A stretch of DNA of 54,648 nucleotides. It comes from an uncultured Mycoplasmatota bacterium. Lineage in GTDB: Bacteria; Bacillota_I; Bacilli_A; RF39; UBA660. The stretch spans positions 1 through 54,648 of the forward strand of contig CAMLWN010000002.1 of assembly GCA_946490195.1 (NCBI GenBank). Direction: 5' to 3'. Shown piece by piece: positions 3,382 to 9,144 of this stretch (position 1 is the stretch's first letter; every line of letters begins with the position of its first letter). Both the position numbers and the translations under genes were made by a program. The notes under the pieces were generated by a model, which did no database searches, was not told where the DNA came from, and saw only the letters and a program-made list of their open reading frames with translations.

Positions 3382-5838
3382 ATGAAAAAATTAAGTATTT
3401 TTCTTTTATTCCTTTGCTTGTTAGGAATAAAAGAAGTATATTCGGCTACTATAACCGATCAAATAACAAGCACGTTTTTAGGAGATTATCATTACGTATA
3501 TTCGGATGGTAAATTTGGAGATTTTGAACTTTTTAGAAAAAATAGTAATCAAGATATTGCTTATTGTATTGAGCCCGGTGTTTCAAGACATAAGGGAGAT
3601 TATACTGGGTATTATGGTTTATCTAATGCCGAACTTGCTTTAAAGGCTGGAATCAGTACTCAACAATTAGAAATGATAAGTCTGTTATCCTATTACGGAT
3701 ATGGCTATAAAAATCATACAAGTACAGATTGGGTAGTCGCGACTCAGTCTAAAATTTGGAATGTATTAGGAAAAGAATTTCAATTCACAAGTAAAAATTA
3801 TTCTCCAAATCCATGGCAATACGTTATAAATACTCCATCAAACATTCAGGAAAAATATAATGAATTAGACGTTTTAATAGAAAGACACTACACTAAACCT
3901 AGTTTTGATCGTCAAACGATTTTAATTCCTTATGGAGAATCTTATATCTTGGAGGATACAAATGGAATTTTAAATGAATTTGAAATTAAGAGTTCAACAA
4001 ATTGTACAGTAACTATAGAAAATAATTCACTAATAATCACTCCTAACAATTCAAAAAGTGAAGGTGTTATATACCTTATTAAAAAAAATGATGCTTGGAA
4101 TCGGGAGATTATCCTTTTTCATCATGATACAGGTCAGGATCTTTTAGCAACGGGCGATGTGAAATCTGTAGAAAGCACAATTGTTTTTAAGGCTGTCACG
4201 GGAAAAACCACTTTAAAAAAAGTGGATAAGAGCACTAAAACATGTACACCTCAAGGAGAAGCTTCTTTAGAAGGTGCGGAATATGGTTTATATAAAGAGG
4301 ATGGTACTTTAGTACAAAGTATCAAACTTGAAAACTGTGAAGCTACTATAAGTAATTTGGTTTTAGGAAACTATTATGTAAAAGAATTAAAAGCTCCTCC
4401 AGGATATCAGTTAGATGAGAATAAATACCCATTTTCTATTACTAAAGAAAACTTTCAAAAAACTCAGACTATTTTGGTAGAAGATGAAGTGTTCACAACT
4501 GATTTAGTTATCAACAAACACTATTTGACTAGTGAAGGATTGCTACCAGAAGAAAATACTGAATTTGCTATATTGAATAAAAAAACTGAAAAAGTTCTAT
4601 ATACTTTTAATACAAATGAATTAGGACAAATTCATGTTACTCTTCCCTATGGTGAATATATTATTAGACAAATTTCTGGTTTAGAAAACTATTATAAAAG
4701 CGAAGATATTTTTTTAAATGTAAATGAAACAACTCCTAAGGAAACAACAATTGATCTAATTAATGAACCTTACACTTCAAAGGTTAAAGTTATTAAAAAA
4801 GATAGTACTACAAATGAGAAAATTTATTTAGAAAATATTTCTTTTAAAATTTATGATGTAATCAATAAGAAATACGTTTGTCAAACTGAAGATTGTGTTT
4901 TTAAAACAAACCAAAATGGCGAGTTTATAACAGAAGAACTCTTTCCTTCAACCTATCGTATTGAAGAAATTAAGCAAAATATTAAGGGATACTTATGGAA
5001 TGATGAAACTATTCTTTTTACTGTAGATAAAAATTCACCAGATATTATTGAATTAGAGTTTTTTAATAAACCAGCAAAGGGAAAAATAAAGCTTCAAAAA
5101 ACTAATCAAAAAGATGAGCCTCTAAGTAACGTTGTTTTTACTCTTTATGCTAAAGAAGATATTCTCGAAAATGGGAAAATTATTTATAATAAAGATGAAG
5201 CAATTAAAACATTTCTTACAAATGATTTAGGACAATTTGAAACCAATTTACTTCCTTTAGGAGAATATTATTTTCTAGAATCAAATTCATTGGACGGATA
5301 TATTCCTTTAAAAGATCCTATTTTTGTTTCTTTAAAGTTTCGAGATTCTTTTACAGAAGTAGTTGAATATGAACTTTCAGTTGTTAATAAGCCTAATTAT
5401 AAAGGAAAAATTGTGTTAACAAAAACAGATAATTTAGGTAATCCTTTAGAAAATGTCGGGTTTACTCTTTATGCTAAAGAAGATATTTTTGAAAATGGTA
5501 TAGTTATTTATTATCAAAATGAACGAATTGGCGATTTCTATACGGATTCTTTAGGCCAACTAGAAACATCTTTACTTCCTTTAGGAAAGTACTATTTTAT
5601 TGAGTCAAATCCTATAGTTGGCTATATTTCAACAAATGCACCAATTTTGGCTGAGCTTAAATATAATGATGAAGAGGATTTTATAGTGATTGAACAAATA
5701 GAAATTATAAATGAAATTTTTGAAGTTCCTAATACACATTTAGACGCTACCTTTTTTCCTGCTATTCATGTTTATTTAGAGGAAGACAGTAATGAAAAGA
5801 AAAATAAGCATTTTAGTTTTGTTGCTCGTACTTTGTAG
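3382..5838 (+). CDS. Secreted surface adhesin with an N-terminal thioester-like domain and multiple SpaA/Cna-B type (prealbumin-fold) repeats
   Basis: Signal peptide MKKLSIFLLFLCLLGIKEVYS/A. AYCIEPG and ATQSKIW resemble the Cys and TQxA(I/V)W motifs of thioester domains. Repeated modules of the form GxYxxxExxAPxGY (LGNYYVKELKAPPGYQL, LPLGEYYFLESNSLDGY, LPLGKYYFIESNPIVGY). Two adjacent ~100-aa modules are near-duplicates. Confidence 0.75.
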   Translation: MKKLSIFLLFLCLLGIKEVYSATITDQITSTFLGDYHYVYSDGKFGDFELFRKNSNQDIAYCIEPGVSRHKGDYTGYYGLSNAELALKAGISTQQLEMISLLSYYGYGYKNHTSTDWVVATQSKIWNVLGKEFQFTSKNYSPNPWQYVINTPSNIQEKYNELDVLIERHYTKPSFDRQTILIPYGESYILEDTNGILNEFEIKSSTNCTVTIENNSLIITPNNSKSEGVIYLIKKNDAWNREIILFHHDTGQDLLATGDVKSVESTIVFKAVTGKTTLKKVDKSTKTCTPQGEASLEGAEYGLYKEDGTLVQSIKLENCEATISNLVLGNYYVKELKAPPGYQLDENKYPFSITKENFQKTQTILVEDEVFTTDLVINKHYLTSEGLLPEENTEFAILNKKTEKVLYTFNTNELGQIHVTLPYGEYIIRQISGLENYYKSEDIFLNVNETTPKETTIDLINEPYTSKVKVIKKDSTTNEKIYLENISFKIYDVINKKYVCQTEDCVFKTNQNGEFITEELFPSTYRIEEIKQNIKGYLWNDETILFTVDKNSPDIIELEFFNKPAKGKIKLQKTNQKDEPLSNVVFTLYAKEDILENGKIIYNKDEAIKTFLTNDLGQFETNLLPLGEYYFLESNSLDGYIPLKDPIFVSLKFRDSFTEVVEYELSVVNKPNYKGKIVLTKTDNLGNPLENVGFTLYAKEDIFENGIVIYYQNERIGDFYTDSLGQLETSLLPLGKYYFIESNPIVGYISTNAPILAELKYNDEEDFIVIEQIEIINEIFEVPNTHLDATFFPAIHVYLEEDSNEKKNKHFSFVARTL

Positions 5839-6322
5839 TTTTTTACAATTTGAAAAAAATGTAAATAATACAACAATTGGAACCTCACTTCCGCTTTACA
5901 TATCAACTATTCCTATAAAAAACACAAAGCAAGAAACAGAAAAAGAAGCAACTTTAGAAATTAGCAAAATTTCTTTAAAACAACCTTATTATCCGACAAC
6001 ATCTTCTTTAAATACTGTAGATAAAGGTATTGAACAGCTTAGTAATTGTAAACCTAGTGAAAATTGTACTATTGTCCTAGCGGCTCATTCAGGAACAAGT
6101 AAAATTTCCTATTTTAAAAATTTAAATAATTTAACTAAAAACGATGAAGCTAAAATTTATTATAAAGATAAAACATATTCTTATCGATTAATAGAAATTC
6201 TTTATCAAGAAAAAACTGGTTTTATTACGATACCCAAAAACACTTATGATTTAGTCTTAACTACTTGCAATACAGAAAAAGAAAATATTCAAAACATCTA
6301 TTTATTTGTAAAAACAAACTAG
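5792..6322 (+). CDS. Small sortase-like transpeptidase, 176 aa, membrane anchored
   Basis: N-terminal anchor KRKISILVLLLVLCSF. His motif IVLAAHSG and Cys motif LVLTTC. GAGGAAG Shine-Dalgarno. The start overlaps the adhesin 3' end by 47 nt. Confidence 0.65.
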   Translation: MKRKISILVLLLVLCSFLQFEKNVNNTTIGTSLPLYISTIPIKNTKQETEKEATLEISKISLKQPYYPTTSSLNTVDKGIEQLSNCKPSENCTIVLAAHSGTSKISYFKNLNNLTKNDEAKIYYKDKTYSYRLIEILYQEKTGFITIPKNTYDLVLTTCNTEKENIQNIYLFVKTN

Positions 6323-6422
6323 ATGTTTTTTTAATAACAAAAGTGTAAGAAAGTTTTAATAAAGTTTTTGCTATAATGGTAATAACCAAACAAGTGCACA
6401 TTTGGCTGAAAGGAATTTGATT

Positions 6423-6652
6423 ATGAAAGAAATATTAAAAATCAATCATTTAAAAAAATACTATGGTTCAAAAACAAACATTACCAAAGAAAAGGTTTTA
6501 CTGGGAGTAACCGAGCAAAAAAATATGCCACAGGTATGGGATTATATTTAGCTAAAAAGTTATCAGAAAGCTTAAACATTCATTTAAAAATCGAATCAAA
6601 ATATCAAGAATTTACAAAAGTTATTCTAGAATTTTCTCTTCAAAAAAAATAA
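6423..6652 (+). pseudogene. Deletion scar in which the first ~20 codons of an ABC ATPase are joined out of frame to the last ~55 codons of a BceS/MbrD-type histidine kinase
   Basis: Frame 0 reads MKEILKINHLKKYYGSKTNITK (typical ABC ATPase N-terminus) with a TGcTATAAT promoter and an RBS upstream. From ~6485 a different frame reads QRKGFTGSNRAKKYATGMGLYLAKKLSESLNIHLKIESKYQEFTKVILEFSLQKK* (kinase G2 box and C-terminus). Confidence 0.7.
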
Positions 6653-6686
6653 TAACTTAACATATAATTTATGATATAATATAAAT

Positions 6687-6793
6687 GTCAAAGATATTGA
6701 CATAAAAAAGGGAATACTTAACATTCGATGGTTGAGTACTCACCTTAAGGTTGATAAGTACTTAATTCATCACGAATTGAGTACTATTTTTTT
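6687..6793 (+). ncRNA. Candidate antisense sRNA (putative antitoxin), copy 1; ends are approximate
   Basis: Extended -10 TGATATAAT at 6672-6680. The transcript would end at the hairpin AGTACTTAATTC-atcac-GAATTGAGTACT plus T7 (6757-6793), which overlaps the stop codon of the convergent peptide ORF. Confidence 0.5.
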
Positions 6794-6873
6794 ATTAAAA
6801 TTATCAATAAAGATAAAATCAACAACAGATTAGTTAAGAGTAAAAAGGTAATTAGTAAATCCTTTTTCTTCAT
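6784..6873 (-). CDS. 29-aa hydrophobic peptide MKKKDLLITFLLLTNLLLILSLLIILIKK (candidate type I toxin), copy 1
   Basis: Strong Shine-Dalgarno GAAAGGAGAAG upstream of the ATG. A single TM-like core has charged ends. The copy at 7114-7203 encodes the identical peptide, and the only 3 nucleotide differences are synonymous. Confidence 0.6.
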   Translation of the reverse strand: MKKKDLLITFLLLTNLLLILSLLIILIKK

Positions 6874-6935
6874 AACTTCTCTTCTCCTTTCAAAAAGAAG
6901 ATAAGTACTCATGTGCTAAATATTCCCTTAAGCCA

Positions 6936-6964
6936 AATATAACATATACCTTCTATAATTGCAA
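6936..6964 (-). promoter_or_regulatory. Sigma-A type promoter for peptide copy 1
   Basis: TTGCAA, then a 17-bp spacer ending in TG, then TATATT. The predicted start is near 6929. Confidence 0.5.
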
Positions 6965-7013
6965 ATAGCAAAAAAATAGAATAAAAACAAAGAATTTATG
7001 ATATAATGAAATT

Positions 7014-7123
7014 GTCAAAAGAAATGACATAAAAAAGGGAATACTTAACATTCGCTGGTTGAGTACTCACCTTATAGTTTAAGTGAAGTACTTAATTCAT
7101 CACGAATTGAGTACTATTTTTTT
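7014..7123 (+). ncRNA. Candidate antisense sRNA (putative antitoxin), copy 2; ends are approximate
   Basis: TGATATAAT at 6999-7007 and an identical terminator hairpin plus T7 at 7087-7123. Confidence 0.5.
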
Positions 7124-7203
7124 ATCAAAATTATCAATAAAGATAAAATCAATAACAGATTAGTTAAGAGTAAAAAGGTGATTAGTAAATCCTTTTTCTT
7201 CAT
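7114..7203 (-). CDS. 29-aa hydrophobic peptide (candidate type I toxin), copy 2
   Basis: Peptide identical to copy 1, with the same Shine-Dalgarno. Confidence 0.6.
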   Translation of the reverse strand: MKKKDLLITFLLLTNLLLILSLLIILIKK

Positions 7204-7267
7204 AACTTCTCTTTTCTCCTTTCAAAAAGAAGATAAGTACTCATTTGTTAAATATTCCCTCAAGTAA

Positions 7268-7296
7268 AATATAACATAAACAAACTAGGTTTTCAA
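7268..7296 (-). promoter_or_regulatory. Sigma-A type promoter for peptide copy 2
   Basis: TTGAAA, then a 17-bp spacer ending in TG, then TATATT. Confidence 0.5.
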
Positions 7297-7316
7297 ATTT
7301 ATAGAAAGGACATAAT

Positions 7317-7682
7317 ATGTTAGAAACAAATGAAATTTTAGAAAAATTAAGTAAATCAAAATTTAGAAATAGCGTTCACCTAAAGGATAAAGAAAAAAAT
7401 TATATCAAAGAAAAAGGAATGGATACAATAGAAAGACATGCGAAAGATTTTATCTCAAAAAGACTAGCCCCAACAAATCCTTTAAATGATGGAAAACAAA
7501 CACCTATGAAAGGACATCCTGTTTTTATAGCTCAACATGCTACAGCAACATGTTGTCGAAGTTGTCTTTACAAATGGCATCATATTCCTAAAAATAAAGA
7601 ATTAACGACCTCAGAACAAACCTATATCATAAATATAATTATGACTTGGATAAAAAAAGAATTAGCTCATAAAACAAGCTAA
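7317..7682 (+). CDS. DUF4186-family protein, 121 aa
   Basis: GHPVFIAQHATATCCRSCLYKWHHIP matches my recollection of the DUF4186 core. Confidence 0.65.
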   Translation: MLETNEILEKLSKSKFRNSVHLKDKEKNYIKEKGMDTIERHAKDFISKRLAPTNPLNDGKQTPMKGHPVFIAQHATATCCRSCLYKWHHIPKNKELTTSEQTYIINIIMTWIKKELAHKTS

Positions 7683-7690
7683 TTCTTTTT
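7655..7690. terminator. Bidirectional terminator between convergent genes
   Basis: Perfect 13-bp inverted repeat AAAAGAATTAGCT/AGCTAATTCTTTT with flanking A and T runs. Confidence 0.6.
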
Positions 7691-7698
7691 GAATACTT

Positions 7699-9144
7699 TT
7701 ATAAAATAATTGAGAAGAATGTTAATAAAATAACATTAACAATTGCAATAGTTAATACAACTTTAAATGCCCATTTAAACCAAGTTGAATATTCTACTTT
7801 AGCTAAAGCAAGTCCTCCCATAATTGCCCCACACGTTGGAGTAATTAAGTTTACAAGTCCATTAGCTGCTACCATAGTCATAACAGTCGTTTCCACACTA
7901 TAATTTAATTGAGTAGCTAAAGGTCCAATAATTGGAGCTGATAATGTTACTAAACCTGAAGATGATGGAACTAAAATAGATAGTACTACATGTAAAACAT
8001 AGTTAAGTGGAGTAAAGACAAATGCTGGAACATTTCGTAATAATTCAGCTGCATTATAAATAATATAATTATCTAAATGTGTAGTTTGCATTAATACTGA
8101 TGCTCCGCGAGCAATTGCAATAATTAAAATAACTCCAACCATATCATCTGCACCATCTACAAATGTATCAACAAAACTTTTTTCTCCTGTATGATTTATA
8201 ATTCCAATTAATACAGCCATTATTAAGAACCATAAAGCTGCTTCAAAGAAATACCAGCCACCTAATGGTGTTCCTGTTAACCATCCAGTAAACTTAGTAA
8301 AGAATGTAACTCCAAAGTCTTCCCATGGAATAAATCCAATAATCATAACTAAAAATGTTAAAGCAAATAACCATAAAGTAACCTTTTGATGAAAATCTAA
8401 ATGAACAACTTTACTTTGAGCTTCTTCATCTTTAACACCATATTCTTTTTCCATATTTTTTTGTTCTCTCAAAGAAAGAATTGTTGAGCCTTTTTTCTTA
8501 ATAACTCTTTTTGCATACATCATAACAAAGAAAATAGAAATTGCTAAAGTTGTTAACCATAAAGCTACACCAATACCTATAATTAATCCTTGATTAACTA
8601 CTGTTCCCTCTGGTAAGGCACTTATTGCAGCCCCTACTGCAAATGGGTTAATTGTTGAGCCTAAAACTCCACTTCCTGCACCAAGTAAAACAATTGCTGA
8701 GGCAACTACTGTATCCATACCTGCCATAACCATAGTTGCTGATAAAAGTGCATAAAAGCCAACTGTCTCTTCAAGCATACCATAAGTAGTTCCACCTAAA
8801 GAGAAAATAAACATTAAAATTGGAATTAAAACAAGTTCATGTCCTTTTAATTTTCGAACTAATACTTGTATTCCTGTTTCCAAAGCTTTAGTTCTTGATA
8901 CTACAGCTAAAAACCCTCCTAAAATTAATACGAAAATTCCTACATCAATCGCATTTTCAAATCCTAAAATTGGAGCCATTAAAATATCTGATAAACTTGC
9001 TCCAACAACACCACTACCGTTGACGATTTCCTCACCAACAAATTCTGCTTTTGGTAAAAAATGCGAAACAATACCAAGAACAAAAATTAAAATTAAAATA
9101 ATTGAGAATGAGGTTAAAAACCCCTTTTTCTTAGATTTTGCCAT
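7699..9144 (-). CDS. YfcC/DcuC-type (C4-dicarboxylate anaerobic carrier family) membrane transporter; last gene of the ADI operon and a putative arginine/ornithine exchanger
   Basis: Polytopic 481-aa membrane protein with YfcC-like sequence character, directly downstream of arcC. Confidence 0.7.
   Translation of the reverse strand: MAKSKKKGFLTSFSIILILIFVLGIVSHFLPKAEFVGEEIVNGSGVVGASLSDILMAPILGFENAIDVGIFVLILGGFLAVVSRTKALETGIQVLVRKLKGHELVLIPILMFIFSLGGTTYGMLEETVGFYALLSATMVMAGMDTVVASAIVLLGAGSGVLGSTINPFAVGAAISALPEGTVVNQGLIIGIGVALWLTTLAISIFFVMMYAKRVIKKKGSTILSLREQKNMEKEYGVKDEEAQSKVVHLDFHQKVTLWLFALTFLVMIIGFIPWEDFGVTFFTKFTGWLTGTPLGGWYFFEAALWFLIMAVLIGIINHTGEKSFVDTFVDGADDMVGVILIIAIARGASVLMQTTHLDNYIIYNAAELLRNVPAFVFTPLNYVLHVVLSILVPSSSGLVTLSAPIIGPLATQLNYSVETTVMTMVAANGLVNLITPTCGAIMGGLALAKVEYSTWFKWAFKVVLTIAIVNVILLTFFSIIL

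Follow-up and report, generated by a model that had tools for sequence, protein, structure and literature searches.

What do the two tandem repeat units at positions 6643 to 7298 of a contig from an uncultured Mycoplasmatota bacterium encode? The window, i.e., the whole stretch of DNA analyzed here, comprises 54,648 nt (GenBank assembly GCA_946490195.1, contig CAMLWN010000002.1, positions 1 to 54,648 of the forward strand). A preliminary description, made from the sequence alone, had read the two units as copies of a type I toxin-antitoxin (TA) module, in which a gene for a small hydrophobic peptide converges with a gene for an antisense RNA. We examined this section of the window on both strands, with a consensus scan for promoters and terminators over positions 6200 to 7800 and shuffled controls, and collected at least 135 distinct members of the family to which the units belong. 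The units are probably representatives of a new family of type I TA modules of the Gram-positive 3'-overlap type, with a lock between the two ends of the mRNA like that of hok and AapA, in which the peptide would be the toxin and the antisense RNA its antitoxin.

The tandem units and their 29-codon reading frame

The two units of ~330 bp each were recovered as direct-repeat families D1 to D3, which span 6643-6966 and 6970-7298 with a spacing of 327 to 332 bp and an identity of 84 to 97%; by blastn, unit 2 was 91% identical to unit 1. Each unit carries a promoter, a Shine-Dalgarno (SD) sequence, and a 29-codon open reading frame (ORF) on the minus strand and an extended -10 element and a hairpin followed by T7 over the stop codon of that ORF on the plus strand. 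The minus-strand promoters found by the scan were TTGCAA (copy 1, 6936-6964) and TTGAAA (copy 2, 7268-7296), in both cases with a 17-nt spacer that has TG before the -10 element TATATT, and the family consensus at this position is an extended -10 element (TGnTATAAT/TATATT). With its ends placed by this promoter and by a terminator termed T2, the toxin mRNA of copy 1 is predicted to be ~227 nt long (6703-6929, minus strand), with the 5' and 3' ends paired in the fold; alignment to copy 1 places the predicted mRNA of copy 2 at 7030-7261 (minus strand). The ORF of copy 1 (6784-6873, minus strand; MKKKDLLITFLLLTNLLLILSLLIILIKK, stop codon TAG), called from the sequence and the family coding test, and that of copy 2 (7114-7203, minus strand) encode identical peptides. 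The ORFs differ at 3 nucleotides without any change of amino acid (ATT/ATC, TTG/TTA, and TTA/TTG), and the flanks carry substitutions and indels. An upstream in-frame ATG in copy 1 would give a 42-amino-acid ORF, but this ATG is not in frame in copy 2 and the wider family lacks it, and the 29-codon ORF is therefore taken as the real one. The tandem arrangement with its period, the form of the sigma-A promoters, and the synonymous nature of the differences had all been put forward in the preliminary description and were reproduced here by repeat detection, consensus scan, and ORF comparison, respectively. The other signals and positions given in that description were likewise all confirmed.

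A hydrophobic helix of 21 residues stands between a KKKD head and a KK tail in the peptide, which is therefore predicted to be a single-pass membrane peptide. At 29 amino acids, and with its own SD, this small hydrophobic membrane-spanning ORF lies well within the length of less than 60 to 70 amino acids expected of type I toxins. Among the matches listed, the ORF was exactly 29 amino acids long in 111 of the 126 family copies with enough sequence. For codons 12 to 28, which lie outside the pattern used for the searches, the ratio of nonsynonymous to synonymous variation (pN/pS) was 0.32 in frame compared to 0.66 and 3.3 in the shifted frames. Codon position 2 showed the lowest variability, as expected for a hydrophobic helix. 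Inside this hydrophobic pattern the peptide sequence is free to vary across the family, and none of the conserved positions of the family consensus is P, G, or W. A check free of the ascertainment through this pattern of codons was obtained with a hidden Markov model (HMM) built from the non-coding 3' part only; of the 137 distinct places that it matched, at least 97 have an SD-preceded hydrophobic ORF terminating at the hairpin described below as H1. The SD and the start codon were retained in nearly all copies. These results support the earlier proposal that the peptide is under purifying selection and indicate, at the level of sequence comparison, an ORF that is conserved in frame.

The predicted antisense RNA gene and the structure of the mRNA

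On the plus strand, the extended -10 element TGATATAAT was read at 6672-6680 (copy 1) and 6999-7007 (copy 2), as the preliminary description had it. The antisense RNA predicted from the fold of copy 1 extends over 6687-6794 (plus strand, ~108 nt), and homology to copy 1 places that of copy 2 at 7014-7124 (plus strand). TGnTAnnnT was present on the strand opposite the ORF in 71 of 72 members among the matches listed, 32 nt past T2 in 48 of those, and a -35 element TTGnnA was usually found at 17-nt spacing to the -10 element. The predicted 108-nt RNA of the window has three stem-loops and a minimum free energy (MFE) of -31.4 kcal/mol (z score, -5.7), and its start lies ~20 nt past the mRNA 3' end, a distance that is 32 nt in most of the family. 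The antisense promoter and the small stem-loop that follows it, ~10 to 60 nt past T2 (6672-6701 and 6999-7028 in the window), form the most conserved stretch across the peptide subfamilies, above the peptides themselves. In the mRNA sense this stretch reads ATGCAAGTTTCCTTGAC.TATTCATAATAACAT in the main family, and the window's clade has diverged there.

The predicted antisense RNA terminator, H1 followed by T7, lies at 6757-6793 in copy 1, where scan, fold, and compensatory changes in the family all point to it, and at 7087-7123 in copy 2 (plus strand, terminator scan). The hairpins (6757-6785 and 7087-7115) comprise 12 pairs each and are followed by ATTTTTTT. They were the sole terminator-like sites called in the scan of 6200 to 7800, for which shuffles predict 0.2, and the chance expectation for the 29-nt H1 hairpin sequence within the window was 0.00. 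The U-run stands on the plus strand only, where it is the complement of the peptide KK codons; the terminator overlaps the stop and KK codons, and the predicted mRNA continues to T2. In an alignment of 78 sequences (A4), used for all counts of pairing and covariation, H1 was paired at 95%, and both partners had changed in 6 of its 11 pairs. A C.A mismatch in the mRNA sense, which is a U.G pair in the antisense sense, was conserved in 72 of these 78 sequences, and H1 is therefore perfect only on the strand that bears the U-run, i.e., the antisense strand. The hairpin terminator of the preliminary description is thus borne out as a strand-specific one. The antisense RNA is perfectly complementary to the entire 3' untranslated region (UTR) of the mRNA (T2, linker, and H1) and to the last codons of the ORF, with an overlap from ~6703 to 6794 that includes the stop and KK codons. 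At the sequence level, each unit appears to carry a gene for an RNA that is complementary to the toxin mRNA and has a promoter and a terminator to itself, which is what is looked for in a type I system.

T2 itself, a second hairpin on the minus strand, had been overlooked in the preliminary description. In copy 1 the hairpin occupies 6708-6746 and, with its U-run, 6703-6746; fold and family pairing identify it as the probable terminator of the toxin mRNA and as the partner of the leader. In copy 2 it was read from the sequence at 7031-7073 (minus strand) by alignment with copy 1. T2 was paired at 89%, with 5 pairs showing changes on both sides. The leader of copy 1 (6901-6929, minus strand) contains a closing arm at 6914-6929 and a UGAGUACU motif at 6904-6911, and the first ~30 nt of the mRNA prove to be an inverted copy of T2, giving a duplex of 27 to 29 bp (-33.0 kcal/mol in copy 1). 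The preliminary description had proposed a 13-bp helix closing the 5' end onto the 3' end. That such a helix exists and covaries was upheld, but its length was not, as the whole leader pairs with both arms of T2. The 16-nt arms at 6708-6723 and 6914-6929, which are 88% complementary, form the closing helix in the MFE fold of the predicted mRNA.

The predicted 227-nt mRNA of copy 1 has an MFE of -69.1 kcal/mol (z score, -7.5), with the 5' end paired to the 3' end, whereas the separate local folds sum to -49.8 kcal/mol. In the MFE fold the UGAGUACU motif pairs with the 5' arm of H1; RNAalifold instead favors its pairing with the 5' arm of T2. Both pairings appear because the entire ~30-nt leader is an inverted copy of T2. 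Across the family, the duplex between the cognate leader and 3' UTR averaged -33.8 kcal/mol compared to -12.3 kcal/mol with shuffled leaders. In six representatives, drawn from four peptide subfamilies whose sequences differ greatly, the cognate combination of leader and T2 (-30 to -36.5 kcal/mol) was the best for each one, and this cross-subfamily pairing is the strongest structural evidence obtained here. The long-range structure was paired at 78% compared to 32 to 44% for controls with slid partners, and pairs 50-194 (AU, 55; GC, 17; GU, 5) and 12-295 (GC, 32; AU, 27; GU, 7) covaried. The covariance check across relatives that had been suggested at the outset was positive for H1, T2, and the long-range helix. 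Predicted folds and duplex energies indicate that the 5' end of the mRNA is clearly sequestered by long-range pairing, and the local and end-to-end folds are alternatives, both of which are conserved.

The SD of copy 1 (AAGGAG, 6884-6889) faces an anti-SD (CUUCUU, 6895-6900) in a local hairpin at 6884-6900 (minus strand), in which it is paired in the MFE fold, with an unpaired probability of 0.01 to 0.20; in the comparison with controls, too, the SD was mostly paired (unpaired probability, 0.24 to 0.33). A fold test proposed in the preliminary description, in which the full-length mRNA is compared to a 3'-trimmed version, did not support an opening of the SD by trimming; the occlusion comes from this local anti-SD hairpin.

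Distribution and decay of the family

The number of relatives depended on the search pattern. The exact hairpin pattern matched three species-level metagenome-assembled genomes (MAGs) labeled "uncultured Bacilli," and a codon-degenerate pattern for the N terminus matched five, plus four metagenome contigs. A slightly relaxed pattern matched at least 120 stretches, almost all of them in gut MAGs labeled Bacilli, Tenericutes, Mollicutes, or Mycoplasma, from rabbit, goat, human, mouse, and chicken. Among the matches listed, the dominant peptide of the family is MKKKDLLISFLILIIILLIVSLMILCIKK, and that of the window is a minority variant of a small clade. The HMM from the non-coding 3' part brought in other peptide subfamilies on the same RNA scaffold (MTKKDFLISALIIIILLLIILLFK, MNKKDLLIFALIVVILLLIALLFVILN, MKTKTFVIKVLKLIAIILLLSTLLVLAIKK, and MTKREFSQFIIILLLFLVVIILLLK); at least four peptide subfamilies have one RNA scaffold in common.

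In the window's clade, the module is flanked by a DUF4186 gene on one side and a histidine kinase/response regulator pair on the other. Outside this clade the neighbors are unrelated, with no conserved neighbors across the family, and synteny with DUF4186 was accordingly rejected as a family trait, being confined to the window's own clade. tRNA genes were seen beside or near some modules, at 1878-1951 in locus L036 (directly adjoining, with a gap of ~60 nt) and at 2135-2215 and 5061-5210 in L188. Modules were tandem or clustered in 33 of 114 loci among the matches listed. Loci L116, L133, L188, L181, L190, L160, and L194 have two or three modules within a few hundred bases, some with different subfamilies, and are thus small islands of paralogous cassettes.

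About 12% of the copies found by pattern were broken, with frameshifts, premature stops, or loss of the stop codon through a 1-nt deletion in A7. The second copy in L003 (2925-3164) has a 2-nt insertion giving MKKKDLLITFLLL* and is naturally inactivated. In L038 a copy at 7523-7790, found by DNA similarity, has its start codon ATG changed to ATA and retains the RNA hairpins and their covariation. In four species (L121, L135, L137, and L149) the A7 run that corresponds to 6787-6793 of the window is one A short, with stop-loss peptides ending in ...IKNSTQS...; the run is a possible hotspot of slippage, through which the peptide would be switched or extended. Matches to the 3' UTR/antisense part without an upstream toxin ORF were found in L125 (~3611), L137 (~731), L139 (~5684), L116 (~5353), L134 (~5809), L181 (~3783), and L124 (~510), and they have the appearance of orphan antisense genes or of what remains of a module once its toxin is lost. 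Genomic criteria typical of type I TA loci have been described previously (Fozo 2010, PMC2887945). Tandem copies, unconserved neighbors, decayed copies, and orphan antisense remnants are typical behavior for type I TA loci.

Other features were noted around the units in the window. Positions 6402-6652 (plus strand) hold gene debris in which the N terminus of an ABC transporter ATPase (MKEILKINHLKKYYGSK...) is continued by the C terminus of a histidine kinase, a remnant with a weak HATPase_c match (E value, 0.043). At the same position relatives L007, L009, and L011 have an intact kinase and response regulator, and L006 has the kinase in two pieces. Upstream, the gene for a surface protein of 818 amino acids (3382-5838, plus strand), which combines a thioester domain with five SpaA (prealbumin-like) domains, is followed by an overlapping sortase gene (5792-6322, plus strand). 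This looks like a pilin/adhesin-sortase pair, which points to a cell-walled host. A perfect 14-bp inverted repeat (AAAAAGAATTAGCT/AGCTAATTCTTTTT) at 7654-7690, between convergent genes for DUF4186 and a DcuC-family transporter, is probably a bidirectional terminator.

Known systems, alternative readings, and a proposed mechanism

The Gram-positive 3'-overlap class of type I systems has been described (PMC8594479, PMC8309996), and the predicted architecture of the module equals that of this class. Like TxpA/RatA and BsrG/SR4 (and also BsrE/SR5 and YonT/SR6) of Bacillus subtilis, the module has convergent genes, a short membrane peptide that has a single helix and one lysine-rich end, an SD that may be partly sequestered, and an expected action through duplex formation and subsequent RNase III cleavage (PMC8594479, PMC8309996), the last by analogy only. 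As in that group, the transcripts overlap at their 3' ends (~6703 to 6794, including the stop and KK codons). However, neither the peptide nor the RNA has sequence similarity to the group by Rfam, Pfam, or NCBIfam, and the peptide has 29 amino acids compared to 38 to 59. Unlike in the TxpA/BsrG group, the antisense RNA here also reaches across the entire 3' UTR as far as the terminator of the mRNA. That terminator recurs in inverted form in the mRNA leader, a feature that is not known from systems of this group.

In common with par (Fst/RNA II) of Enterococcus faecalis, the Fst/Ldr superfamily, and SprA1/SprA1as, the module has an mRNA of ~230 nt and convergent promoters, a terminator hairpin common to both strands, a 5' stem-loop that may sequester the SD, an intramolecular helix that hides the extreme 5' end (5'-UH), and K and D near the N terminus of the peptide (PMC7472228, PMC8309996). 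In contrast to Fst/Ldr peptides, the peptide has no PXXXG(C) motif, conserved tryptophan, or long charged tail and no Pfam match. Whereas the shared hairpin is a bidirectional terminator in Fst/Ldr, here it terminates the antisense RNA only and the mRNA reads on to a second terminator; the overlap, confined to the terminator in Fst/Ldr, comprises ~90 nt here. The start codon is not covered by DRa/DRb repeats as it is in Fst/Ldr, and the only 5' complementarity is that of the AGUACU motif and the leader. The predicted long-range 5'-3' closure and the conservation of alternative, metastable local folds alongside the closed form recall hok/Sok of plasmid R1 and aapA1/IsoA1 of Helicobacter pylori (PMC6733600, PMC9841398). 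In hok/AapA systems, however, the antisense RNA is aimed at the 5' region and 3' trimming activates translation, whereas here the antisense RNA lies at the 3' end and the SD stays closed when the 3' end is trimmed in silico. The module also has no leader ORF (mok) and no sequence similarity to hok/AapA, and the host is of the Gram-positive type. Since the module lacks the peptide motif, two-way terminator, and repeats of Fst/Ldr, has its antisense RNA at the other end than hok/AapA, and is not homologous to TxpA/BsrG, it is best placed in a new family within the Gram-positive 3'-overlap type.

Database searches were consistent with the novelty of the module. Searches against Rfam, also with relatives, gave chance matches only, with none other at an E value of ≤10; a match to GibS scored 22 bits compared to a gathering score of 115 and was rejected as chance. 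An exact look-up of seven family peptides in a collection of 15 billion proteins found none of them, the extended 42-amino-acid ORF had no match in protein databases, and of 427 stretches matched in a search with the peptide alignment, 0 were confirmed by tblastn.

Several results weigh against a type I TA module. The peptide had no match in Pfam, NCBIfam, or PADLOC, and no toxin family was matched; in the preliminary description, too, the peptide had not been recognized as a member of a named toxin family. Promoter-like sites in the whole region numbered 12 compared to 10.5 in shuffles, i.e., there was no excess. The first 11 codons were constrained by the search pattern. The covariation counts refer to cells and not to independent events, and much of the change from AGUACU to AGUGCU may belong to one clade. 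The occlusion of the SD was modest in the 5' UTR context (0.33 compared to 0.47 in shuffled controls; P = 1e-7) and was indistinguishable from that in shuffled controls in the full-length RNA, and in silico trimming of the 3' end left the SD paired. What the analysis shows is the coding conservation, the promoter and terminator signals, the RNA covariation, and the distribution and decay of the family.

The same coding and RNA evidence would also fit a conserved, non-toxic small membrane protein that, e.g., modulates a sensor or transporter and whose expression a cis-antisense RNA would tune, with no addiction or toxin system involved; toxicity is what we infer, and in the window's clade the module does adjoin a histidine kinase/response regulator pair. 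This explanation is unlikely. The neighbors vary across the family, copies are tandem or clustered with different peptide subfamilies on one RNA scaffold, about 12% of copies are broken and orphan antisense remnants occur, and the peptide is free to vary inside its hydrophobic pattern. Because of these unconserved neighbors, the clustering, the decay, and the free variation of the peptide, a selfish or toxin cassette fits better than a small protein specific to one partner.

A non-autonomous element resembling a miniature inverted-repeat transposable element (MITE), with the ~30-bp leader/T2 inverted repeats as terminal inverted repeats and the ORF as incidental, is very improbable. The repeats (~27 to 29 bp) do flank the ORF, the genomic site differs between species, and tRNA genes adjoin some copies. 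However, the ORF is length invariant and under purifying selection, with 111 of 126 copies intact, and conservation passes both repeats and reaches the two promoters and the 5' stem-loop of the antisense RNA. The repeats covary as RNA helices with G.U pairs and strand asymmetry, and there was no clear target-site duplication (longest flanking direct repeat of 6.5 nt compared to 5.9 nt in shuffles). The 54.6-kb window holds only 2 copies, and no module matched in the plasmid, phage, and viral-contig collections. Relatives that keep the DNA repeat without the ORF, the case that the preliminary description had linked to such an element, were not seen beyond the disrupted copies already described. 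Equally improbable is a plus-strand small RNA that functions alone as a trans-acting regulator with the ORF as a by-product: the high conservation of the antisense promoter and 5' stem-loop and the antisense-only remnants would suit it, but the body of the ORF lies outside the antisense overlap and is under frame-specific constraint all the same, with SD and start codon kept. Two further readings are unlikely: a leader peptide or attenuator, in view of the unconserved flanks and the lack of a downstream gene in the same orientation, and a precursor of a bacteriocin or pheromone, in view of the lack of a linked gene for a transporter or for immunity.

For the preferred reading, a new family of type I TA modules, we propose the following mechanism, in which transcription, toxicity, neutralization, and the nuclease step would proceed by analogy with TxpA/BsrG, par (PMC7472228), and hok/AapA1 (PMC6733600, PMC9841398). 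Each unit would be a self-contained ~330-bp cassette between two convergent promoters, with a ~230-nt minus-strand mRNA for the 29-amino-acid membrane peptide and a ~108-nt plus-strand antisense RNA that terminates at H1 and its U-run. Because its first ~30 nt are an inverted copy of T2, the finished transcript could close end to end through the 27- to 29-bp helix, and the closed form would be stable and poorly translated. The antisense RNA would then displace the leader from T2, invade the 3' UTR, and make a duplex of ~90 bp; it could do so because it is fully complementary, whereas the pairing of the leader contains wobbles and bulges. RNase III would cut the duplex, removing the terminator and the end lock and exposing the mRNA to decay, a step with precedent in the action of RatA on txpA and of SR4 on bsrG (PMC8309996, PMC8594479). 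A drop in antisense RNA would allow synthesis of the peptide and subsequent damage to the membrane or cell envelope.

A broader possibility, which we put forward only tentatively, is that the modules form an undescribed type I superfamily specific to uncultured gut Bacilli/Mycoplasmatota, in which one conserved RNA scaffold is combined with toxin peptides from four or more interchangeable families, the leader imitates one of the stem-loops of the antitoxin and locks the terminator of the mRNA, and the antitoxin displaces the leader. If true, this superfamily would join the end lock of hok/AapA with the 3'-overlap mode of Gram-positive systems. Type I systems are thought to be under-detected, as their toxins fall below annotation size (PMC12390103, PMC8594479). 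The family described here occurs in well over a hundred species-level uncultured gut genomes, yet the seven of its peptides that were looked up are absent from the collection of 15 billion proteins and the family had no match in Rfam, Pfam, and NCBIfam, and it gives ready models for annotating such loci in MAGs. With several peptide families on one RNA scaffold and clean covariation, it is a natural comparative set in which the interplay of a 5'-3' lock with an antisense RNA overlapping the 3' end may be studied. Although specialists expect further type I families to exist, this one is a good experimental target for its breadth, its unannotated status, its modular scaffold, and a leader that would mimic the antitoxin.

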